The notes beneath the pieces were generated by a model. The model was given only the letters and a program-made list of their open reading frames with translations. It had not been told where the DNA came from and did not search any database. A stretch of DNA of 64,000 bases from Candidatus Entotheonellaceae bacterium. Lineage in GTDB: Bacteria; Tectomicrobia; Entotheonellia; Entotheonellales; Entotheonellaceae. The DNA lies in contig OZ250173.1 of the NCBI GenBank assembly GCA_965238075.1, positions 128,001 to 192,000 of the forward strand. The letters run 5' to 3'. Within the stretch, counting starts at the first letter, position 1. Every line of letters starts with the position of its first letter. The position numbers were made by a program, and so were the translations under genes. Below are positions 2,734-59,819 of the stretch, piece by piece.

Positions 2734-3759
2734 GTGACGCCCTTGAATCAGCGACGCTGGGCCAATTTCCGAGCCAACCGGCGCGGCTACTACTGCCTGT
2801 GGATATTCACCCTGCTGTTCGTGGTCACCCTGTTCGCCGAATTTCTGGCTAACGACAAGCCGCTGCTCGTCTACTTCGACGGCGACCTGCTGGTGCCGGT
2901 GGTGGCGCAATTTCCCGAGACCCGCTTCGGCGGGGAATTTCCGACCGAAGCCGATTATCGTGACGAGTACGTCGTCGAGCTGATTGAAGCCAAGGGCTGG
3001 ATGGTATGGCCCCTCATCCCGTTCGCCTACGACACCATCGTGCGCGGCCGGCGGGCGCCGGCGCCGCCGTCGGCGGTGAACTGGCTGGGTACCGACGACC
3101 ACAGCCGCGACGTGCTGGCGCGCCTCATTTACGGCTTCCGCATTTCGGTGCTGTTCGGCCTCGTGCTGACGGTGTTTTCCATGCTCATCGGTGTCTCGGC
3201 GGGCGCCGTGCAGGGCTATTTCGGCGGCTGGCTCGATCTCACCCTGCAGCGGCTGATGGAGGTGTGGTCGTCCATGCCCACGCTCTATCTGTTGATCATC
3301 CTGTCGAGCGTCGTGCAGCCGAATTTCTGGTGGCTGCTGGGCATTCTGCTGCTGTTCAGTTGGATGGGCTACGTCGGGGTGGTGCGCGCTGAGTTTCTGC
3401 GGGCGAGAAACTTCGACTTCGTGCGGGCGGCGCGAGCGCTCGGCGTGTCGAACGCGGTGATCATGTTCCGCCACGTCCTGCCCAACGCCACGGTGGCCAC
3501 CATCACCTTCCTGCCGTTCAGCCTCAGCGGCGCGGTAACGGCCCTCACGGCGCTCGATTTTCTGGGCTTCGGCCTGCCGCCCGGCTCGGCCTCGCTGGGC
3601 GAAATGGTGACCCAAGGTCGCAACAATCTGCACGCCCCGTGGCTTGGGCTGACGAGTTTCTTCACTCTGGGAATCATGCTGATCTTGCTGATTTTTACGG
3701 GCGAAGCGGTGCGCGACGCCTTTGACCCCCGCAAGACCTTTGCGGCCCGGCCGGAGTAA
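2734..3759 (+). CDS. yejE: Microcin C/peptide ABC transporter permease
   Basis: NQRRWANFRANRRGY, FLANDKPL, WLGTDDHSRDVLARLIYGFRIS. Confidence 0.92.
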   Translation: MTPLNQRRWANFRANRRGYYCLWIFTLLFVVTLFAEFLANDKPLLVYFDGDLLVPVVAQFPETRFGGEFPTEADYRDEYVVELIEAKGWMVWPLIPFAYDTIVRGRRAPAPPSAVNWLGTDDHSRDVLARLIYGFRISVLFGLVLTVFSMLIGVSAGAVQGYFGGWLDLTLQRLMEVWSSMPTLYLLIILSSVVQPNFWWLLGILLLFSWMGYVGVVRAEFLRARNFDFVRAARALGVSNAVIMFRHVLPNATVATITFLPFSLSGAVTALTALDFLGFGLPPGSASLGEMVTQGRNNLHAPWLGLTSFFTLGIMLILLIFTGEAVRDAFDPRKTFAARPE

Positions 3760-3776
3760 TCCCCCTCGGAGGTCGT

Positions 3777-5405
3777 ATGGCGGCGTTGTTGGACATACAG
3801 GACCTGGCGGTGGATTTCCGTACCGAAGGCGGCGCCGTGCATGCCGTTGCGGGACTGTCCATGTCGATTGACCGCGGCGAAACCGTCGCCCTGGTCGGTG
3901 AATCCGGCTCCGGCAAGTCGGTCACGGCCCTAAGTGTTTTGCAACTGCTGCCCTACCCCACCGCCTCGCACCCCGGCGGCAGCATCCGGCTGGACGGCCA
4001 GGAGCTGCTTGGCGCGCCCGCTTCAACGATGCGTACAGTGCGCGGCAACCGCATCGCCATGGTCTTCCAGGAGCCCATGACGTCGCTCAACCCGTTGCAT
4101 TCCATCGACAAGCAGCTCGGTGAAACGCTGCGGCTGCACAAGGGCATGGGAAAGACGGGTGCACGACAACGAACCCTGGAATTGCTGCACCTGGTCGGTC
4201 TGGCCGAGGCCGAGAAACGCCTGACTGCCTTCCCGCACGAACTTTCCGGCGGCCAGCGCCAGCGCGTCATGATCGCCATGGCGCTGGCCAACGAACCCGC
4301 CCTGCTGATCGCCGACGAACCCACCACCGCGCTCGACGTCACCATTCAGGCGCAGATTCTGCAACTGCTCAAGAGCCTGCAGCGCCGGTTCAACATGGCA
4401 ATGCTGTTCATCACCCACGACCTGACCGTCGTGCGCAAGGTGGCCGACCGCGTCTGCGTCATGCAGCACGGCGTGATCGTCGAGACTGGCGCCACCGCCC
4501 GCATTTTCGAGACCCCCGCCCACCCCTACACCCAGCAGCTAATCCAAGCGCAGCCGAGCGGCACGGCACCGGCCGCCGCCGCCGCGGCGCCTCTGATACG
4601 GACCGAAGACCTCCGGGTCTGGTACCCCATCCGCGCCGGCCTGTTGCGCCGTACCGTCGATCACGTCAAGGCGGTGGACGGCCTGACGCTCACCGTGCAC
4701 GCCGGCCAGACGGTCGGGGTGGTCGGGGAATCCGGCTCCGGCAAGACCACCCTGGGCCTGGCGCTGCTGCGGCTCATTGCCTCGCGGGGCGTCATTCATT
4801 TCCGCGATACCCTCATCCAGGGATTGAAGTCGCGCGCCCTGCGGCCGCTGCGGCGGGAAATGCAGATCATCTTCCAGGACCCGTTCGGAAGCCTGAGCCC
4901 GCGTTTGTCGATTGCCCAGATCATCGAAGAGGGTCTCAAGGTGCACGGCACCGTAAGCACCGCCGAGGCGCGCGACGAAATCATTATCGCCGCGCTGCAA
5001 GAAGTAGGGCTCGACCCGGTAAGCCGGCACCGCTATCCGCACGAGTTTTCGGGCGGCCAGCGGCAGCGGGTGGCCATTGCCCGCGCTCTCGTGCTCAAGC
5101 CCGCTTTCATCGTCCTGGACGAGCCGACGTCTTCGCTCGACGTCAGCGTGCAGGCCCAGATTCTACTCCTGCTGCGCCAACTCCAGCGCGACCACAATCT
5201 CGCTTACCTGTTCATCAGCCACGACCTGAAGGTCGTGCGGGCGATGGCCAACTATCTGGTGGTCATGTACCGTGGCAAGGTCGTTGAAGAAGGCCCGACC
5301 GAGGCGATTTTCGAGCACCCCCGGGACGCCTACACCCAGCGCCTGTTGGCCGCCTCGCTTGACCTGGATTCCCCTCCGGACAATACAGTGGAGGGTGATC
5401 AGTAG
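3777..5405 (+). CDS. yejF: Peptide ABC transporter ATP-binding protein with two ATPase domains
   Basis: Two GESGSGK Walker A motifs, two SGGQRQR signatures; operon context. Confidence 0.92.
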   Translation: MAALLDIQDLAVDFRTEGGAVHAVAGLSMSIDRGETVALVGESGSGKSVTALSVLQLLPYPTASHPGGSIRLDGQELLGAPASTMRTVRGNRIAMVFQEPMTSLNPLHSIDKQLGETLRLHKGMGKTGARQRTLELLHLVGLAEAEKRLTAFPHELSGGQRQRVMIAMALANEPALLIADEPTTALDVTIQAQILQLLKSLQRRFNMAMLFITHDLTVVRKVADRVCVMQHGVIVETGATARIFETPAHPYTQQLIQAQPSGTAPAAAAAAPLIRTEDLRVWYPIRAGLLRRTVDHVKAVDGLTLTVHAGQTVGVVGESGSGKTTLGLALLRLIASRGVIHFRDTLIQGLKSRALRPLRREMQIIFQDPFGSLSPRLSIAQIIEEGLKVHGTVSTAEARDEIIIAALQEVGLDPVSRHRYPHEFSGGQRQRVAIARALVLKPAFIVLDEPTSSLDVSVQAQILLLLRQLQRDHNLAYLFISHDLKVVRAMANYLVVMYRGKVVEEGPTEAIFEHPRDAYTQRLLAASLDLDSPPDNTVEGDQ

Positions 5406-50649: not shown

Positions 50650-51877
50650 TGACCCTGCCCCCTAGTTCCTGCCATTGGATAGTAGAGTCTGTTCACGATC
50701 GTTGCTCTTCACAACGCCGCTGTTAGGGCCTGCGGCGTAGAGCCATGAAACAGCTCACGTTCAGCATGCCCGTCAATACACCTGAGGCCGGCGTAGATGC
50801 TTGGCGGCAGGCCGCCCAACGAACTGTGCGGCCGGATCGTATTGTAGTCCCGCCTCCAGTCTTCAATGAGGTTGCGCGCCTCGCCTAATGTCGTGCATAA
50901 GTGCTCATTGAGGCATTCGTCCCGCAGCCTGCCGATGAAGCTTTCGACGAAGGCATTCTGGGTCGGCTTGCCCGGCGCGATGTAATGCCAGTTGATCCTG
51001 GCTTCCTGCGACCCCTTGAGGACCGCGTGACTGGTCAGCTCGGTGCCGTTATCCGAGACGATCAGGATAGGCCTGCCACGCAACGAGACGATGCGCTCCA
51101 GCTCTCGGGCAACCCGAACCCCTGAGAGCGAGAAATCCGGCACGATGGCCAAGGCTTCGCGCGAAAAGTCATCGACGATGCACAAGGCCCGAAACCGACG
51201 CCCATCGGGGCGACTTGGCACGACCCTCGGCTTGCGCGTCCCTAAAGCTCGCTTGCGGCCCCGCCTACGTCGCACCGCAAGCCCCTCTTCACGATAGAGG
51301 CGAAAGAGCTTCTTGTGATTCACCAGGGTGCCCTCACGTCGTAACAGGATGCCCAAGCGCCGATAGCCAAACCGGCGGCGCTCGCCGGCCACCATCTTTA
51401 GCCGCTCTCTCAGGGCCGCGTCCGTACCCAGCTTCTTGTGATACTGGAACGTGGAGCGATCCAGCGCCACCAGCTTGCACGCCCGCCGCTCGCTCAAGCC
51501 GTGTATCGTCATCACGTGATGCACGGCTCTTCGCTTGGCGTCGGGCGTCAGAAGTTTTTTGTCGCCAGCTCCTTCAGGGCGGCGTTGTCCAGCATGGCCT
51601 CGGCCAGGAGTCGTTTGAGGTTGCCGTTTTCCGCCTCCAGGGCGCGTAGCCTTCGCGCATCGCAGACGGTCATGCCACCAAACTTGGCCTTGTACTTGTA
51701 GAAGGTGGCGTCGCTGATGCCATGCTTGCGGCACACCTCGGAGGTCTTCAAGCCCGCCTCTTGCTCGCGGATCATGGCGATGATCTGCTGGTCCGTGAAT
51801 CTACGCTTCATAGAGTCCATTCTCCCAACTCCAAGGGACTCTACATCGTCGCGGCCCGGATTCAAGGGGCTGGGTCA
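50650..51877 (-). mobile_element. IS3 family element (orfA 51811-51548, orfB to 50709, -1 frameshift A6C); probably defective
   Basis: TGACCC..CCCC inverted ends; [11 protein letters not shown] orf[25 protein letters not shown] orfB; the WSxDF segment is missing. Confidence 0.9.
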
Positions 51878-52492: not shown

Positions 52493-53464
52493 TCAAGGAT
52501 CGGTGAGATGGAGATTCAGCGGTAGGTTCCCGTCTTCCGAGTCAACAATGTACTTCTTCACTTTGGGGAGGATCTTTTCCATGGCTTCCAGGTAGAGTCG
52601 GATCCTCGTTATATCGGGGGCCTTTTCGTACTCGGTAAGCAAGGCCAGAAACCGACCGCTGTTGCCGATGGCTTCCGCCGTTGTCTGTTCCTTGTAGCTT
52701 TGCGCTGCCAACACGAGCGTACGGGCCTCACCTCTGGCTTTGGGCAGCAGATTGTTCACATACGTCTTTGCTTCGTTGATCTTCTTGTCGCGGTCGGCCT
52801 GGGCGTTAACCACATCCTGGAAAGCCTGGGCGACCGACTTATCCAGCGTGATGGTCATGATATTGGCAGACGTGACCTGAACACCACTGTGGTAGCGGTC
52901 CAGTGCGGTTTGGGTACTGTTCTTGACGTGCTCCTGAATCGCCAGCCGTCCGGTGGTGAGTACTTCATCGACTGACATCCCGATCACGGCGGCGGTTAGA
53001 ATCGCCTCCGCCAAACTGCCAATGAGTGTTTGGGGCGCTTCGACTTCGAACAGATAATCAGTCGGTTGTTGAACGACGTATTGCAGCACCATACCCACGC
53101 CGATGATGTTGGTGTCTCCGGTCAAGAGTTCGATGCCTGTTATCACCTCTCCTTCCACCTCCGGGAGGACGAATCCTACTCCGCTTTTCATCACCGCGGT
53201 GGTCTTCAAGGTATCGACCCGATCCACGGGCCAAGGCAGCCGGTAATGTATCCCGGGCCCCAGTCGGGCGGCGAGACGTCCAAAGCGCCGTACCACGGCT
53301 TGCTCGTCCGCAGCCACAGCAAAAATACCCGAGGCGAGGTAGAGCAGTATGAGGACAACACCGAGGAGCCCCCCCAAGAAGACACGCTTCAGCATCCACG
53401 ACGCACCGGCGGTGGGAGCGATGTCATCATGGTCCGGGGGAGACTGGGAGGCGGTTGTGTCCAT
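52493..53464 (-). CDS. hflK: HflK-like SPFH protein
   Basis: TM, EQAVVRRFG, GIHYRLPWP, LLTGDTNII, AFQDVVNAQ, LPKARGEA, APDITRIRLYLEAMEKIL. Confidence 0.88.
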   Translation of the reverse strand: MDTTASQSPPDHDDIAPTAGASWMLKRVFLGGLLGVVLILLYLASGIFAVAADEQAVVRRFGRLAARLGPGIHYRLPWPVDRVDTLKTTAVMKSGVGFVLPEVEGEVITGIELLTGDTNIIGVGMVLQYVVQQPTDYLFEVEAPQTLIGSLAEAILTAAVIGMSVDEVLTTGRLAIQEHVKNSTQTALDRYHSGVQVTSANIMTITLDKSVAQAFQDVVNAQADRDKKINEAKTYVNNLLPKARGEARTLVLAAQSYKEQTTAEAIGNSGRFLALLTEYEKAPDITRIRLYLEAMEKILPKVKKYIVDSEDGNLPLNLHLTDP

Positions 53465-53467
53465 GAT

Positions 53468-54394
53468 CTACTCTTGTGTCTGCGGCTGCGGATCAGGGTC
53501 CAACAGTTGCAGGGCTTCTGCATCGGCAGGAAAGAAAACGGTGGTGTTAGCATCCAGAAATTTCTCGTAAGCCTCCAGGGTGCGGAGGAATTTATAAAAT
53601 GGCGGATTGGCACGGAAAGCCTTGGCGTAAATTCGCATGGCTTCCGCATCGCCTGCACCCTTCAAGCGCTCCCCCTCTTTGTACGCTTCGGCCAGGATAT
53701 AGCCCTTCTTCCGTTCGCCCGCAGCGATAAGCTTCTTGAATTCTCGCCCTCCTTCAGAGCGGTGTCGCATGGCGATCCTGCCCCGTTCCGCCTTCATACG
53801 CGCAAAGACACTGGCGCGGTTTTGCTCTGGAAACATCAATTGCCGCAGCCACACGTCCACCACCTCGATACCGTAGTGCGACAGCGCTGCCTTGGAGACA
53901 CGCCCCCGGATCTCGGAAAGAATGGTTTGGTACTGGGTTTCCTGGCCGCGCGGAGCGATTATGGCAGCGAATGGATAGGTCCCCAGAACCGTACCGATTT
54001 CCGCAAAGACGATGTCGATAAGCCGGGCCTCGGCCTGTGTCCCGGTAACTACACGCTCTAGAAAGGCCTCGGGTTCCGCGATCTTCCACGTCACCAGGCT
54101 TTGGACCACAATGTTTTTCTTATCCTGGGTGAGATATTCGGCCCTGGGAGGTTTAAAGCTCAACAAGCGTTTTGGCAGGCGTACCACGCTTTCGATGGGG
54201 GTGGGCAACTTGAAGCGCAACCCAGGCTCGTCGATGACGCGCATCACCTGGCCGAAGCGGGTAACCACCACGTACTCTGTGATGTCGACAGCAAAAAAAC
54301 TCGCCTTGAGCCCCACGGCAAGGAGCACGACTCCCAAAAGCGTCAGTGTTCTAACGAGCTTGGTTTGGAAGACTGTATGTTGCATTGTCAGCAC
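53468..54394 (-). CDS. hflC: HflC-like SPFH protein
   Basis: VVTRFG, PGLRFKLP, LTQDKKN, VFARMKAER, FYKFLRTLEAY. Confidence 0.88.
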   Translation of the reverse strand: MLTMQHTVFQTKLVRTLTLLGVVLLAVGLKASFFAVDITEYVVVTRFGQVMRVIDEPGLRFKLPTPIESVVRLPKRLLSFKPPRAEYLTQDKKNIVVQSLVTWKIAEPEAFLERVVTGTQAEARLIDIVFAEIGTVLGTYPFAAIIAPRGQETQYQTILSEIRGRVSKAALSHYGIEVVDVWLRQLMFPEQNRASVFARMKAERGRIAMRHRSEGGREFKKLIAAGERKKGYILAEAYKEGERLKGAGDAEAMRIYAKAFRANPPFYKFLRTLEAYEKFLDANTTVFFPADAEALQLLDPDPQPQTQE

Positions 54395-54416
54395 TCACGC
54401 GGTCTGCTAGGCCCAC

Positions 54417-54573
54417 TAGAGCATTTTCGGTTCGGAATGAATCGCACAATGCTCCGAGGCGGTCATTCCGGTCTTGACCCGGAATCCAGCGGCCCCCGAA
54501 AACCTCTGGACTCCGGCTTTCGCCGGAGTGACATGGATTTAATGTCAAGCCATTATGATCCAAAAGTGCTCTA
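54417..54573 (+). mobile_element. MITE copy 4, inserted at the CTAG containing the permease-HflK stop codon
   Basis: CTAG on both sides (54416-54419 and 54571-54574). Confidence 0.85.
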
Positions 54574-56781
54574 GCGATTTTGCTTCATGCCATTGGGTTC
54601 GAGCAACCACAGATCGAGTTCGTTGACATCTTGACGAACCGGCCGAAGGAATTTCTGCACCGGTGGAAGGACCTCCTCGGCGGTCTCGAGGCGCAGGCGA
54701 AATCGGGTGAGATCGGGGGCATCCTGGTATGCGTTCTGGCGCAGGCTGTAGGCCATTGCGTCGCCCTCGGCCCGCAAGATCTTTTCTTCTCGAAAAGCCA
54801 AGGCTTCCTCAATCATGGCCGCGGCCTCCCCTGAAGCGAGATTCACCTTCTCTCCGGCAAAGGTCAGGGCGCGATTTATGATATGCATTTTGTCTTCCTG
54901 TGCGCTGGCCACGTCCCGAAAAGCCTGATGCACGTCCTGGGGGGCATGCAGGTTGAGGAAACTGAGGGATACCACCTGCATGCCGGCCTGGTAGGCGTCC
55001 AAGAGATCTTGCACCCGCGCCAGACTTTGGCGCTCCATTGTGCCCCGCGCGGTCGTCAGAACCTCGTCAATACTGATTGTGCCGACCGTCTCTCGCAGCA
55101 CAGACAGGATCAGACTGCGTACGAGTGCGTCCGGCGCCGAGATGTTATAGGCATAGGCAATCGCATTATGGATGCGATATTGCACCGCAACGCTAAGGTC
55201 AACAATGTTGGCATCACCCGTTAACACGAAGGCCTCATCATCAACCTTCTCCTTTTGGAACCAGAAGCCAGTTGAGGCGATCGCCATGGGTACAGGGTTG
55301 CCCGGTCCGCCAACGGTCAGACGCTGTCGCGCCTGGGCGCGCACCGTGCCGCTCTGCGGGTCAGTGCTTCTGAAGCCGAGTTCAATGCGTCGGATCAGGT
55401 CCTTGTGCACGATCTGATGACTCGCAATAGGCCAGGGCAGACGGTAATGAAAACCAGGTGACAACTCCCCGGCCACAATTTGGCCAAAGCGCGACTTAAT
55501 GCCTACTGCTCCCGGTGGCACAGCAAAAATGCCGCTCGACAGATACAGCAGGGCTAACGCGAGCGCGGTAGCGCCTTGTAAACGCACGGCCGTCAGATGC
55601 ACCCCTGTATGGGCGGTGAGGCTATCGCGCACCCCCAGCCATTCCTCTGGTACATGGGTGCGTCGCATACTGAGGAACAACAAAGCTATGAAAATCACGG
55701 CGGCAGCGACTTTGACCTGTTCAGGCACCCCGCCGGTAGCACGTCCAAAGGTCGCCTGCGGTTCTATGTCCCAGGCCTGATAGAGCCAATTCAACGTATA
55801 GCCGGCCAACAGGGTCATCACCACAATGGCGCCCAGGTAGATGGCAACGATCTTCCGTCCCAGAAATTTCAACAGGATAGGAAAACTTCCCAGGTTTGTG
55901 GCTGGACCTGCCAGCAGAAACACCAGCGCGGCCCCAGGGTTCAACCCCTTCAGCACCAGTGCCGCAGCAATCGGGGTCGAGGAGGACGCACACGTGTATA
56001 TGGGGATCCCGAGGATGAGCATGGCCACCATGGTGGTGAAGCCGCCGCTCAAATAGCGTTCGATGATGGAGGCAGGCAAGAGGACTGCCACGAGGCCCGA
56101 CAGGACAATGCCCAGCACCAGCCAGTGACTGGTATCGTCCAGCAAGTCACGGAAAGCATAGGTAAAGATCGTTCGGACAGTCGTATAGGACCCAACTGAT
56201 GCTCCTGGTGTGACTGCCTTGTCGCTTTCAGCATGAGATAAGTGGGAAGTATGATCATGGTCATGAGTATGGGTATGATGCGGTGTGACTGTATGCGGCT
56301 CTGGCAGAGTTGTGTCGGGATGGGAGGCGTCCTGTTCTACCGCAGGTTCGGTGGTGGTGGTTTCCCTCTCGCCCCAAAAATTGGTTGCGATGCCAGCAGC
56401 GATCGCCGTGGCCATAGCAGACAAGGGGCGAAAAATGGTCATCAGTGGATCCAGCAAGGCGTAACTCAAGCTGATTGAATCTACTCCCGTCTCCGGGGTT
56501 GCAATGAGAAATGAGACAGTCGCCCCTGGCGTTGCGCCCTGTCGCCGCAATCCCAAGGCCGTAGGCAACACCCCGCAGGAGCACAGAGGTAGTGGCATGC
56601 CCAGCGTTGAGGCCCATAACACCGACTTGATCTTACCGGTACCGAAGAAACGCAGGAGGGTTTTCAGAGGCATGAGAACAGCGAGAACACCGGCGACCAG
56701 AAAGCCGAACAGGAGAAAAATGCCTGCTTCTTTGACCACAAACCAGGTCTCTTGCGCAACCTGGAGCAAAAACTCAATCAC
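54571..56781 (-). CDS. Fusion of a DUF318/SO_0444-type (ArsP-like) metal permease with His-rich loop and a C-terminal HflK domain
   Basis: PLPLCSCGVLP, FLIATPETGVDS, HHTHTHDHDH, PIYTCASSSTP, FLLAGPATN; then GFHYRLPWP, LTGDANIV, AFRDVASAQED, APDLTRFRL in one frame. Confidence 0.88.
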   Translation of the reverse strand: MIEFLLQVAQETWFVVKEAGIFLLFGFLVAGVLAVLMPLKTLLRFFGTGKIKSVLWASTLGMPLPLCSCGVLPTALGLRRQGATPGATVSFLIATPETGVDSISLSYALLDPLMTIFRPLSAMATAIAAGIATNFWGERETTTTEPAVEQDASHPDTTLPEPHTVTPHHTHTHDHDHTSHLSHAESDKAVTPGASVGSYTTVRTIFTYAFRDLLDDTSHWLVLGIVLSGLVAVLLPASIIERYLSGGFTTMVAMLILGIPIYTCASSSTPIAAALVLKGLNPGAALVFLLAGPATNLGSFPILLKFLGRKIVAIYLGAIVVMTLLAGYTLNWLYQAWDIEPQATFGRATGGVPEQVKVAAAVIFIALLFLSMRRTHVPEEWLGVRDSLTAHTGVHLTAVRLQGATALALALLYLSSGIFAVPPGAVGIKSRFGQIVAGELSPGFHYRLPWPIASHQIVHKDLIRRIELGFRSTDPQSGTVRAQARQRLTVGGPGNPVPMAIASTGFWFQKEKVDDEAFVLTGDANIVDLSVAVQYRIHNAIAYAYNISAPDALVRSLILSVLRETVGTISIDEVLTTARGTMERQSLARVQDLLDAYQAGMQVVSLSFLNLHAPQDVHQAFRDVASAQEDKMHIINRALTFAGEKVNLASGEAAAMIEEALAFREEKILRAEGDAMAYSLRQNAYQDAPDLTRFRLRLETAEEVLPPVQKFLRPVRQDVNELDLWLLEPNGMKQNR

Positions 56782-56875
56782 CTCTGCTCCCCCCACACCA
56801 AATGGCCAACCGTAAGAAGAGGGAAAAGAGAGGAAGAAAAGTCCCCCCCTCTCTTCATCCCTCTATCTTTCCAGC

Positions 56876-57910
56876 CTATTGGGGTAAGTACCTTTTATCC
56901 AACTGACAGGCGACGGAATAACTCGGGTCGACCGCGTTGGCGATCTCCAAGCTAGCTGCCTGCCCCAGAAGCTGGTTGGCCTCAAGCTTGTCATACCCAT
57001 AGTCTTCCACGAGCCAGTTGATCAGGTCGACACAAGCCAGCCTAAGGGCATCGATTAAGGGCCGTGTACTGCCGATGGACATGATATGGGTATCGTTTAC
57101 CAGTCTCGGCCAATTGATGCTTTTTCCCTTGATCAGATCAACGGTGAATTGCACGTCCATTGAGGTTTCGATGGCAGCACCATCGATCTCGCCATCCCCT
57201 TGGGCGGCATGGCCATCACCGATCATGAGCAACGCACCCGGCTCAAACACCGGAAAGTACATGGTGACGCCGGATACCACCTCATTGAAATCCATATTGG
57301 CACCGTGGGGGCCTGGGGTCAGGGAACTCCAGCACTCTTTTCCCGCCGTGACTGTCCCGATGGTTCCAAGGAATGGACGCAGGGGGACTTCCACTCTGCC
57401 AATTTTGCTCTTGGGCATGTCCAGGATGCCAACATTCCTCTCCAGGTCCAAGTTCCAGACAAAGAGGATATCCGGCGCCGGTTCGGTAATCATGGCCGTT
57501 TTGTACTCCGGTTCCAAGGTGCCAAAGTAGGGGATCGAACCGCCCCAACCCCAGTCCCGATTCGGAACGACTTTTTCGAGATGGACCACCAAGGTGTCCC
57601 CAGGCTCAGCCCCTTCGATGTAGAACGGACCGGTCTGGGGGTTCACCCTACTCAGATCGAGCTTGGGAAAGAGGGTCTTGTCAGTGGTGGAATAGACATC
57701 ATTAGACGCATCTCGCGTGGTGGTGATCACCGTATCACCAGGTGAGATGCGCATCGCCGGGGGGTGGGAATGGCAATAGGTGAAATACACCGTGTCACCC
57801 GGATCGTATTCCACGGTCGCCGCCGCCGCCGGGAGCGTCAAGATGAGCCCCATCATGACAGCCAACATCACCTGAACAGCTACCATCTTGCTATTGCACA
57901 AATGCCGCAT
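56876..57910 (-). CDS. Acetamidase/formamidase (FmdA_AmdA) family protein with signal peptide
   Basis: NPQTGPFYIEGAEPGDTL, PFLGTIG, HGANMD, GDGHAAQGDGE, AIET; N-terminal hydrophobic stretch ending AAAA. Confidence 0.88.
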   Translation of the reverse strand: MRHLCNSKMVAVQVMLAVMMGLILTLPAAAATVEYDPGDTVYFTYCHSHPPAMRISPGDTVITTTRDASNDVYSTTDKTLFPKLDLSRVNPQTGPFYIEGAEPGDTLVVHLEKVVPNRDWGWGGSIPYFGTLEPEYKTAMITEPAPDILFVWNLDLERNVGILDMPKSKIGRVEVPLRPFLGTIGTVTAGKECWSSLTPGPHGANMDFNEVVSGVTMYFPVFEPGALLMIGDGHAAQGDGEIDGAAIETSMDVQFTVDLIKGKSINWPRLVNDTHIMSIGSTRPLIDALRLACVDLINWLVEDYGYDKLEANQLLGQAASLEIANAVDPSYSVACQLDKRYLPQ

Positions 57911-57990
57911 ACATGTCTCCTTTGCCTCATTACATAAAGATATAAAGAAAATCGTCACTTAGCTGAAACGTCTACAACACGACCTCTCCC

Positions 57991-58968
57991 CTACTGCCCC
58001 GCCACGTCCATCGGCCTCACCTCCTCCCTGTTCTGGAGCACTGGCGAACGCGGGTCATGAGTCCGAAAGTAGTAGGTGCTGTCATAGAGCATGTGGAACA
58101 ACTCAGAATCCAAAGCCAAGACCATTGTTGTTTGGGAATCGATGGAGCGGCGATAGGTCTGCAGCGTCCGCAGGAAGGTGTAGAACTCCGGATCTTTGCT
58201 CAGCGTCTCAGCATAAATCCGCGCCGCTTCGGCTTCCCCTTCGCCCCGATACTGCTGGGCAATTTTCAAGGCCTCGGCCATGATCGTGGCTTTTTCTCGG
58301 TCCGCGGTGGCCCGGATCTTCAGCCCTTCCTCCTCCCCTTCGGAGCGGTATCGCATACTGATGCGCGTACGCTCCGATTTCATGCGAGAGAACACACTGC
58401 TGCGGTTCTGAGCTGGGAAGTCCAAGCGCTGCAGCCGCACGTCGACCACGGCAATGCCGTAATCCCGCAGGGCAATCTCACGACATTCCCGGGCGACGGT
58501 GGCAAGGATGGCCTCAGCCCGGTAGCCCTCGGGATCCGTTGACACAAAGGCCGTCAGAGGATGCTGTCCGATGGCAGCGCCCAACGCTGCAAAGAGGATA
58601 TCGCTCAGTCGTGAAGCTGCTCCCGAGCGATCGAAAACGGTCTGGAGGAACTTTTGCGGGTCGGCAACGCGCCACAAAACAGCGCTGGCAGCGATGACAG
58701 TGGTCTTTTCCAGGGTGAGGAATTCGCCCAAAGGAGGAACGAGGATAAACAGGCGATTATCGAACCGGGTCACATTATGATAGGGATATTTGAGCTTCAG
58801 CCCCGGAGTTTTGATGACCCGTATAGGATTGCCGAATGCCGTGACCACCGCATATTCGCTGGCATCGACCGTGAAGAAGCAGAGGGTGCCCAGGAATGTC
58901 ACGCAAACGGCTGCACCCAGCAACACGACGGCCCTCACGCGTCCTTTGCCACCGGAGGTCATGGGCAC
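57991..58968 (-). CDS. hflC: HflC-like SPFH protein
   Basis: AVVTAFG, PGLKLKYP, VFSRMKSER, RSEGEEEG, DPEFYTFLRTLQTY. Confidence 0.88.
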   Translation of the reverse strand: MPMTSGGKGRVRAVVLLGAAVCVTFLGTLCFFTVDASEYAVVTAFGNPIRVIKTPGLKLKYPYHNVTRFDNRLFILVPPLGEFLTLEKTTVIAASAVLWRVADPQKFLQTVFDRSGAASRLSDILFAALGAAIGQHPLTAFVSTDPEGYRAEAILATVARECREIALRDYGIAVVDVRLQRLDFPAQNRSSVFSRMKSERTRISMRYRSEGEEEGLKIRATADREKATIMAEALKIAQQYRGEGEAEAARIYAETLSKDPEFYTFLRTLQTYRRSIDSQTTMVLALDSELFHMLYDSTYYFRTHDPRSPVLQNREEVRPMDVAGQ

Positions 58969-59819
58969 CGAACCTCTTATGAGAGAAGGAGCTAAATGGA
59001 AGGAACCCTGCGACGAATCAGGATTTGCCCATCCTTAGCATTACTTTCCTGATACTGTCAAGCGTCAATATTTCGGGCAGTTCTGACAGCAAGGTAATCG
59101 CACGAACCCTCCAATTTCATAGTGTTGCCCAACGCAACCGAGAAAGGAGGCGCTTCGTGCGACTGCTTCAGCGTTACTGCCGTAACTCACCCATAGCGGC
59201 CGGTCACATGCGCAACCTCCACCTGGAAGTTTGACCCTACAAGTCGGCGGTATCCCAAAAACAGACAGGGTCTTCACCGATTCCAGGCGTTTGGCACGAA
59301 AGGGTGCCGAAGAAAAAGCGGTTGTTTACCCGGTATTGGCATATGGAGATGTTCCGGGTTTATACATCGGACTCTAATGCCAGTCGTGCGCCTCGGGCAT
59401 CCGCAGGCGGGGTGTCGACGGCTTTCAGGTCCGACACGATGACAGCGCATTGCAGGCGAGACAAGGTGGGCGGGAAAAACCAGAAATAAAGCACTGGAAC
59501 AGAATATGGTGAGCGAGAGGCCCCTTTTCATAAAGTTGATCGGGGAAGGAGGTATTATCGGTGCGACGCCCTCCCCTAAGCAGGACTCTGTTCATAGCCA
59601 TCGGCGTTTTGACGACTTGAGAAATACGGCGCTGAGATTGTACATCCCGGTTGCCTCGACCCTTTTGGGTGCGATGGTGAAGTATCTCCTTTCTCCGAGT
59701 GAAATAGGCACCGCGTCAACCATCGCCGTGGCGTAACCAACTTGGAGTCCTGGAGACCCCGCTGGTTTCGGCCGTGCAAGCCATGCAGCTTAGCCCGCAC
59801 AAGGCAACAGCGCCAAGAT

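Follow-up and report, generated by a model that had tools for sequence, protein, structure and literature searches.

The subject of this report is a gene on the minus strand of a 64,000-nucleotide stretch of DNA (positions 128,001 to 192,000 of contig OZ250173.1, assembly GCA_965238075.1, from a Candidatus Entotheonellaceae bacterium; the whole of this stretch is referred to as the window), in which a metal permease of the SO_0444 type and an SPFH protein of the HflK type are encoded as a single polypeptide. Judged by sequence comparison this fusion is a genuine, ancient and conserved architecture, and comparative evidence lends good support to its core interpretation, in which a transporter is held on a tether by an SPFH assembly. 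The more specific proposal, that the transporter is built into a dedicated, periplasm-facing SPFH assembly along with HflC, a free HflK and, in this clade, a further HflC, is the one favoured here, and is regarded as probable if by no means certain. SPFH cages, including those of HflK/C, prohibitin, stomatin, flotillin and erlin, have recently been solved, and what such a cage does to the membrane proteins that it surrounds is still debated. A literature search found no published description of a fusion between an SO_0444/ArsP permease and an SPFH protein, the available excerpts of a paper on the ArsP family (PMC7176098) contain no mention of HflK, SPFH or Band 7, and the fusion seems unstudied. 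Its parts are as follows (AF2 denotes AlphaFold2, A1 is an alignment of 85 fused homologues and A3 an alignment that takes in unfused relatives).

54571..56796, minus strand: the fusion gene, consisting of SO_0444-type permease, linker, membrane helix and HflK-type SPFH/coiled-coil part (hidden Markov models, AF2, Foldseek).
55660..56796, minus strand: permease domain, residues 1-379, predicted to comprise two inverted halves and a ninth helix (NF033936, AF2, fold matches).
56575..56583, minus strand: CSC motif, C72-S73-C74 (within LCSCG), at the break between helices 55-66 and 73-85 (alignments, AF2 model of the permease).
56191..56373, minus strand: central His/Asp-rich loop, residues 142-202, containing 10 His, disordered in both AF2 models and variable in length and composition among relatives.
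55987..55998, minus strand: YTCA motif (Y267, C269), at the second helix break, between helices 252-266 and 270-282 (Y267, C269 and A270 invariant in A1 and A3).
55537..55659, minus strand: junction, comprising a Lys/Arg-rich linker helix (380-402) and an HflK-type membrane helix (403-420) (AF2 helices 384-397 and 403-420, conservation).
54574..55536, minus strand: HflK-type SPFH domain and coiled-coil helices, residues 421-741 (TIGR01933, alignment with E. coli HflK, Foldseek).
55225..55377, minus strand: clade-specific SPFH insert, residues 474-524, with consensus ..ARxRLTVGGPSNPVPxAIxxxGFWFQKExV.. (alignment).

The frame is free of stops over 741 codons (54571..56796). The database copy of the protein (P0001, 736 aa, 100% identity) begins five codons further in, at 56781, and this is probably the true start, making the protein 736 aa long. 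An earlier, sequence-only reading of this DNA, which had placed the end of the gene at that same database start, described one frame joining a permease to HflK, with LCSCG and YTCA cysteine motifs, a His-rich loop, an additional transmembrane helix between the two halves and roughly 30 extra residues ahead of the LTGD motif of the SPFH domain; all of these features are found, the additional helix being that at 403-420 in the AF2 model, the tenth membrane helix of the protein. Pfam recognises ArsP_1 at residues 23-336 (E 1.2e-46) and Band_7 at residues 426-638 (E 1.4e-17), while public annotation labels the fused proteins either “HflK protein” or “SO_0444 family Cu/Zn efflux transporter”.

Both Pfam families are present on the same protein in all 120 of the best relatives (out of 5.8 billion proteins), with coverages of 90-100% and lengths of 678-746 aa, and in a library clustered at 50% identity, 116 of the best 150 representatives had a permease half with an SPFH half after it, at identities down to about 32%. 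Fifty-seven metagenomic loci were fetched, 49 of which show both halves; in 45 of these the junction is contiguous and in frame, three (L023, L040 and L053) have a frame change at the junction, and the last is a parsing split. The linker sequence is itself conserved, with R379, P383, E385, W386 and R390 nearly invariant in the 85-sequence alignment. The genome is one 3.35-Mb contig, and a 937-base contig from a run belonging to another study covers 55187-56126, so spanning the junction at approximately 55540-55660; contigs of two runs (X3 and X10) likewise cross the linker and membrane-helix region, and a metatranscriptome contig covers 54543-55678. Against this evidence, the notion that two genes have been wrongly joined by assembly or gene calling, for which the frame changes in three of the 49 loci might be cited, is vanishingly improbable and was ruled out: the relatives are fused, the loci are in frame and an independent contig crosses the junction.

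For the permease half the nearest transporter family is SO_0444 (NF033936; ArsP_1/DUF318; TCDB 2.A.119). The NCBIfam model for SO_0444 Cu/Zn efflux proteins, NF033936, matches residues 18-374 over profile positions 2-348 of 351, scoring 374.2 bits against a cut-off of 300, whereas the model for SaoE, which is arsenical-related, gives 159.5 bits against a cut-off of 325. The sequence-only reading had spoken of a Cu/Zn/As-type transporter, and these scores place the protein with the Cu/Zn type and not with the arsenical type. Besides passing the cut-off, the permease shares with the SO_0444 family the CSC motif, a second Cys and a loop rich in metal ligands. Cys-Ser-Cys is reported as the most conserved motif and the hallmark of the family, whose name refers to Cu/Zn efflux (available excerpts of 10.1101/2022.07.06.499078), and a zinc-stress fitness effect is recorded for a DUF318/arsP relative in Shewanella (available excerpts of 10.1101/072470). 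Residues C72, S73, C74, Y267 and C269 are invariant in A1, and C72 and C74 remain so in A3; among the 120 best relatives CSC is missing only from P0005, which is truncated at the N-terminus. The ninth helix has a parallel in Q8EJL9, a member of the ArsP family, according to the portion of PMC7176098 that was available. Where the present protein departs from typical SO_0444 members, which are standalone proteins of about 350-400 aa, is that the chain runs on into an SPFH protein.

The central loop calls for a different interpretation from the cysteine motifs. Most relatives have a loop that is rich in His/Asp or in Cys, with His/Asp or Cys-Cys loops in many fused proteins and Cys-rich loops in unfused relatives, and several cassette homologues (that is, fusions from gene clusters of the kind described below) have only 0-1 His there. 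From this comparison it would seem that the His-rich loop varies from member to member of the family and does not depend on the fusion, and since several cassette homologues have almost no His in it, the loop is not essential to the design.

Predictions of structure give some idea of how the two halves are disposed in the membrane. The full-length AF2 model, with a predicted local distance difference test score (pLDDT) of 77.5, contains the permease helices, the ninth helix at 359-379, the linker helix at 384-397, the membrane helix at 403-420, the SPFH strands and long helices at 620-692 and 694-709; the central loop, residues 481-514 of the insert and the last 30 residues are modelled with low confidence. 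The permease was also modelled alone (residues 1-385; pLDDT 81.7, predicted template modelling score 0.78). Its model matches the ArsB structure 10tp_A at Z 13.0 over 285 residues, with a root-mean-square deviation of 5.4, a value of Z that the tool's own note calls borderline for helical bundles. Twelve other elevator-type carriers follow at Z 7.5-11.7 (YdaH 4r0c_A at 11.7, then VcINDY, for which 4f35 is a structure, CNT, TRAP-QM, NaS1, INDY, Pho90 and DiT1 among them), and the next match falls to 4.9. All 13 align over 240-292 residues at sequence identities of 8-13%, and the likeness to ArsB and the other elevator carriers is one of fold, seen in a predicted model; when the sequence of the permease half was compared with those of solved structures, nothing matched at E up to 1. 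Because of the clean gap in Z (7.5 to 4.9) and the extent of the alignments, it is likely but not certain that the permease shares an ArsB-like elevator architecture. In that case the re-entrant hairpins of the inverted repeats would be the two helix-break-helix elements in which CSC and YTCA lie.

The number of membrane helices was taken from the AF2 models, charge statistics and fold matches, simple hydropathy counting having failed to settle it. Over the 85 homologues the loop at 42-58 has a mean Lys + Arg count of 4.1, the linker is Lys/Arg-rich and the N-terminus is acidic. On this basis the predicted topology has the N-terminus outside, loop 42-58, R84-R85 and the central His-rich loop inside, loop 240-251 outside, K310/R315/K316 inside, loop 342-358 outside, the linker inside and the SPFH domain outside; it is the charge bias, combined with the hairpin-containing elevator fold, that would make the linker cytoplasmic and the SPFH domain periplasmic. 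A cytoplasmic position suits the central loop both in unfused relatives, where it is Cys-rich, and in the many fused ones that have His/Asp or Cys-Cys there. The partner SPFH proteins, in which Lys and Arg residues precede the membrane helix, would by the same token face the same way as the fused SPFH domain. The predicted topology differs from the 4+4 parallel arrangement proposed for the ArsP family in the available excerpts of PMC7176098. It may be added, as an observation in its own right, that an elevator-type fold would conflict with the 4+4 TOG-superfamily topology put forward for ArsP/DUF318 in that same source.

Turning to the SPFH half, this scores 176 bits over residues 425-716 with the NCBIfam HflK model TIGR01933 (cut-off 159.4), as compared with only 27.3 bits for the HflC model, and aligns by sequence with residues 147-342 of E. 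coli HflK (7vhp_E) at E 1.9e-30. Foldseek places the HflK chains of E. coli cages at the top (7vhq, 9cz2, 9paw and 7wi3, E 7.8e-15 to 8.1e-11), the best being 7vhq_E at E 7.8e-15 with a TM-score of 0.66 normalised by target, and ranks HflC, prohibitin, stomatin, erlin, QmcA and flotillin after them. The E. coli HflK/HflC-FtsH complex (7vhp, 7vhq, 7wi3, 9cz1/2, 9paw) is the nearest solved system, and the membrane helix of HflK, the SPFH domain and the long coiled-coil helices are common to both. As in E. coli, an HflC gene directly follows, and a periplasmic orientation is likewise proposed here. The differences are no less clear: the subunit studied here bears a nine-helix transporter on its N-terminus and an SPFH insert of about 34-48 residues that is specific to its clade, and it scores a mere 111.4 bits with the E. 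coli-type HflK model NF008181, failing that test by a wide margin (cut-off 660). Such scores mark the fused SPFH half as an HflK-type paralogue and not as the housekeeping orthologue.

Five genes lie in the order HflC', secreted FmdA/AmdA-like protein, fusion, HflC, HflK, all on the minus strand, and the four that accompany the fusion are these.

57991..58968, minus strand: HflC', an extra HflC-type SPFH gene, first in the cassette (TIGR01932 179.7 bits against 134.4; Band_7 E 1e-21).
56876..57958, minus strand: secreted FmdA/AmdA-family amidase-like protein (Pfam FmdA_AmdA, PF03069, E 2.7e-33, 115.8 bits against a gathering cut-off of 27).
53468..54394, minus strand: HflC, directly downstream of the fusion (TIGR01932 173.5 bits against 134.4).
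52493..53464, minus strand: free HflK, the last gene of the cassette (TIGR01933 226.7 bits).

HflC' has a Lys/Arg-rich stretch at its N-terminus followed by a membrane helix, and a terminator-like hairpin lies after the free HflK, at 52397-52378. With two HflK-type and two HflC-type genes to a cassette, and no protease gene, the arrangement departs from that of E. coli HflK/C. The order and orientation of all five genes are kept in two genome loci, which were returned by a scan of a genome collection using the fusion protein alone, and in metagenomic loci. Among those loci with sufficient flank (at least 700 bp upstream in the case of the amidase-like gene) the amidase-like gene is present in 31/31, the upstream HflC in 22/22, the downstream HflC in 43/44 and the free HflK in 27/28, counts which describe the window's clade (46-61% identity) because the patterns used to gather the metagenomic loci came from that clade. 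The one locus wanting the downstream HflC (L016) has transposase-like open reading frames (ORFs) in its place, at 2881-4081. Two further loci are irregular: in L050 (5790-7301) a 503-aa permease has had its C-terminus replaced by unrelated membrane sequence and there are no SPFH genes downstream, while in L002 (4850-5950, a gammaproteobacterial metagenome-assembled genome) the amidase-like gene has stops and apparent frame changes, which may represent decay or poor assembly, and the four SPFH/permease genes look intact. In a relative of about 95% identity every one of the five genes is covered by metatranscriptome contigs, and one contig (55739-57662) joins the amidase-like gene to the permease; this hints weakly at expression.

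A second module, 47 kb away in the same genome (G000:C1:228148-232271, equivalent to L003 4148-8271), consists of a fusion, HflC and HflK. Its fusion has 701 aa, is about 40% identical to that of the window and contains no insert, and the module has neither amidase-like gene nor upstream HflC. For this module type, fusion-HflC is found in 5/5 loci, with HflK next wherever the locus reaches that far, and upstream of the fusion there is nothing similar. Of the 12 Band_7 matches in the genome seven fall in the two modules; elsewhere there are a likely housekeeping hflK-hflC pair at about 2504986-2506657 (G000:C1) and SPFH genes at 2131270 and 375399.

Since an HflC gene and a second HflK gene follow the fusion in both module types, tethering of the transporter to an SPFH assembly, as the sequence-only reading had suggested, fits the evidence well, and it is supported in addition by the authenticity of the fusion and by the retention of the HflK membrane helix, SPFH domain and coiled coils, which is all that HflK/C rings are known to need for their construction. 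In the arrangement proposed, the C-terminus of the permease would lead through the conserved cytoplasmic linker into the membrane helix of the HflK-type protein, all in one polypeptide; the SPFH/coiled-coil part would face the periplasm and co-assemble with HflC and the free HflK (and with HflC' in this clade); and a ring or cage resembling that of HflK/HflC would form, of whose membrane patch the transporter would be a permanently tethered occupant. Dilution of the fused HflK by the free one would then allow the cell to set how many positions of the ring carry a nine-helix permease. Rings of SPFH proteins that have a specific membrane partner are known in QmcA-YbbJ (8z5g) and stomatin-aquaporin 1 (9zd2), but there the partners are separate chains, whereas here the link is covalent.

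It might be supposed instead that the SPFH/coiled-coil part is a scaffold and nothing else, serving to oligomerise the permease or to anchor a microdomain, while the neighbouring genes form assemblies of their own. Homo-oligomeric rings are indeed formed by stomatin, QmcA and flotillin, but HflK-type proteins alternate with HflC in the solved cages 7vhp and 7wi3, and linkage to HflC and free HflK as tight as that just described (43/44 and 27/28 loci, and both module types) would be hard to explain if the products worked apart; such a scaffold is judged a rather unlikely explanation.

Degradation of membrane proteins by HflK/C-FtsH is established, and a related possibility is that the fused HflK and its partners recruit or exclude FtsH, as HflK/C does in E. 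coli, with regulated proteolysis controlling how much transporter there is; the fusion would then exist for turnover, not for placement. This is unlikely, though it is the foremost of the competing explanations. The SPFH half does pass the HflK cut-off and does match the HflK chains of FtsH-HflK/C structures, and the genome has two FtsH genes; against this, those genes lie megabases away, the 31 flanking ORFs sampled from 16 loci include no protease gene, the E. coli-type HflK model is missed by far, and the separate hflK-hflC-like pair at about 2.505 Mb could serve FtsH.

Within the cassette the best-conserved member is the amidase-like protein (68-86% identity). Its closest solved structures are 5ubu, a “putative acetamidase/formamidase” (E 3.9e-61), and 2ii1 (E 3.5e-37), while it falls below the cut-off of the formamidase model NF045496 (FmdA; 83.6 bits against 500). 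A hydrophobic segment at its N-terminus ends in AAA|T, a site of the Ala-X-Ala type that is kept in homologues, and by eye this reads as a putative signal peptide. A review of formamide (PMC10781810) makes no statement on metals in FmdA/AmdA enzymes. Given that such an enzyme accompanies the permease, one may ask whether the cargo is a metal at all, or rather a small organic or organometallic compound tied to the substrate or product of the enzyme, in which case the metal label would be misleading. The ArsP_1 family includes exporters of organoarsenicals (available excerpts of PMC7176098), and both the conservation of the amidase-like gene and the lack of a His-rich loop in several cassette homologues lean the same way. 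However, the permease passes the SO_0444 cut-off, CSC and the second Cys are invariant, most relatives have His/Asp- or Cys-rich loops, and the three-gene module type does without the amidase-like gene, so that a non-metal cargo is thought decidedly improbable.

If the cargo is a metal, the cassette of the window's clade would link metal transport at the inner membrane to a periplasmic FmdA/AmdA-like hydrolase. As for the insert in the SPFH domain, between GF (474-475) and LTGD there are 49 residues in the fusion and 15 in the standalone HflK at 52493, a difference of about 34 (the “roughly 30” of the sequence-only reading); relative to E. coli HflK the excess is about 48. Members of the window-type clade share the insert in strongly conserved form, and the second fusion and standalone HflKs lack it; across 116 fused cluster representatives the loop at this position measures 5-60 aa. 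Insert, extra HflC and secreted amidase-like gene co-occur in one clade, which is no more than a correlation across a single clade boundary. The insert may be a client-docking loop, as had been suggested in the first place. A complex prediction pairing SPFH residues 421-640 (alignment A1) with the mature amidase-like protein, residues 48-360 (alignment A2), gave a score of 0.00 (mark 0.32), which weighs neither for nor against binding.

The most elaborate proposal to be considered is a metallation chamber, in which a mixed HflK/HflC cage would enclose tethered Cu/Zn permeases that pump cytoplasmic metal into the enclosed periplasm and so load an FmdA/AmdA-like enzyme held there, perhaps by way of the clade-specific insert and the extra HflC. 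As a whole this is a speculative scheme and rather unlikely to be correct, although were it true, metal would be secured for an exported enzyme when scarce, or shielded from competition; there would be a protein-bounded reaction compartment in the periplasm, and the SPFH cage would have its first defined “job” besides protease control.

The nearest genetic analogue is the PA2435-PA2439 cluster of P. aeruginosa, in which genes for an HflC-family protein, HflC and an HflK-family protein (PaFlo5-7) stand beside that for the P-type ATPase HmtA; there the transporter belongs to another family and is unfused, and the likeness drawn here is one of gene arrangement. Its transcripts and proteins rise on zinc depletion (PMC4542158, and the available excerpts of PMC11761036 and PMC13086221). 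As to the neighbourhood of the present cassette, two of the loci with scanned flanks have a divergent gene for a ZIP-family zinc transporter immediately upstream of the first cassette gene (L036, 2893-3609, minus strand; L048, 255-1265, minus strand). The two ZIP neighbours, the zinc-depletion induction of PA2437-2439 and the secreted enzyme in the cassette incline one towards a role in zinc economy, while the fitness data behind the family name (excerpts of 10.1101/072470 and 10.1101/2022.07.06.499078) incline one towards efflux.

Several observations weigh against the favoured proposal, or at least against its details, and need to be set beside the evidence given so far. The physical assembly, a closed cage and the placing of the permease in the cage wall all derive from homology and gene linkage, and are to be read as conditional; so too are topology, co-assembly with the neighbours, cage shape, transport direction and metal, in contrast to the fusion, its domains and motifs, their conservation and the cassette, which are directly observed. 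The ZIP genes beside two cassettes, together with the zinc-depletion induction of the Pseudomonas analogue (PMC4542158), fit zinc supply as well as they fit detoxification. Deletion of PaFlo5-7 in P. aeruginosa produced only slight phenotypes, with no metal-stress assays reported in the available excerpts of PMC13086221. When the 31 flanking ORFs of 16 loci were examined with Pfam, conservation proved not to extend past the five genes, and the flanks were mostly unrelated to metals, with mobile-element or toxin-antitoxin genes in several. A search upstream of the cassette revealed neither a metal-responsive regulator nor an operator: 58940-59400 contains no inverted repeat, no small ORF upstream makes a convincing regulator, and a promoter scan of the upstream region gave fewer sites than in shuffled sequence. 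The AF2 model has pLDDT below 50 for insert residues 481-514, and its confidence is low for the central loop also. Lastly, a FastTree tree of the permeases implies at least 14 changes between fused and unfused states among 125 rows, with unfused or truncated forms scattered among the fused; because of this scatter the fusion is perhaps not obligatory, or many of the unfused rows are fragments, as may well be so, and the number of origins of the fusion is left undecided by the tree.

In five genomes of the same genus the best match to the window's fusion is of the second module type (40-41% identity, open frames of 707-716 aa), and with these queries no close relative of the window's fusion or amidase-like gene was found there. 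Since these genomes show only the second module type, the cassette of the window is probably an acquired extra copy. An IS3-family transposase pair, an HTH_Tnp_1 ORF followed by an rve integrase ORF (50709-51865, minus strand), is situated directly downstream of the cassette, and this, taken with the absence of the cassette from the same-genus genomes searched, suggests acquisition by transfer.

Two features of the intergenic sequence may also be recorded. Between the amidase-like gene and the fusion, at 56823-56856, a purine/pyrimidine-rich hairpin with as many as 15 pairs precedes a T-rich tract; this could be an attenuator or a processing site. Between the stop of the fusion and HflC, at 54408-54571, there is a repeat element that contains palindromes and measures about 120-160 bp; it looks like an insertion resembling a miniature inverted-repeat transposable element. 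It has 44 matches in the genome, six of them full-length at 92-100% identity, and three of those six are elsewhere in the window (at about 28844, 36692 and 38269); contig depth over it rises roughly 100-fold in 4/4 runs examined, and the contig of a related strain skips it.

What is new here is, in the first place, the five-gene cassette with its secreted FmdA/AmdA-like protein and a conserved, clade-specific SPFH insert, and in the second the presence of two module types in one genome and, at the level of prediction, an elevator-type fold with a cytoplasmic metal-ligand loop. A natural fusion of this sort names outright a client of an SPFH cage subunit, and the architecture is widespread, occurring in hundreds of sequence clusters. 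It would offer a tractable system in which to ask whether clients lie inside the ring or outside it, how many go with each ring, and what confinement does to transport, while the free HflK beside the fused one suggests a built-in setting for occupancy. The linkage of a metal permease to a secreted enzyme, finally, bears on how bacterial periplasmic proteins obtain their metal, and also on the P. aeruginosa SPFH operon, which is zinc-regulated and still unexplained.

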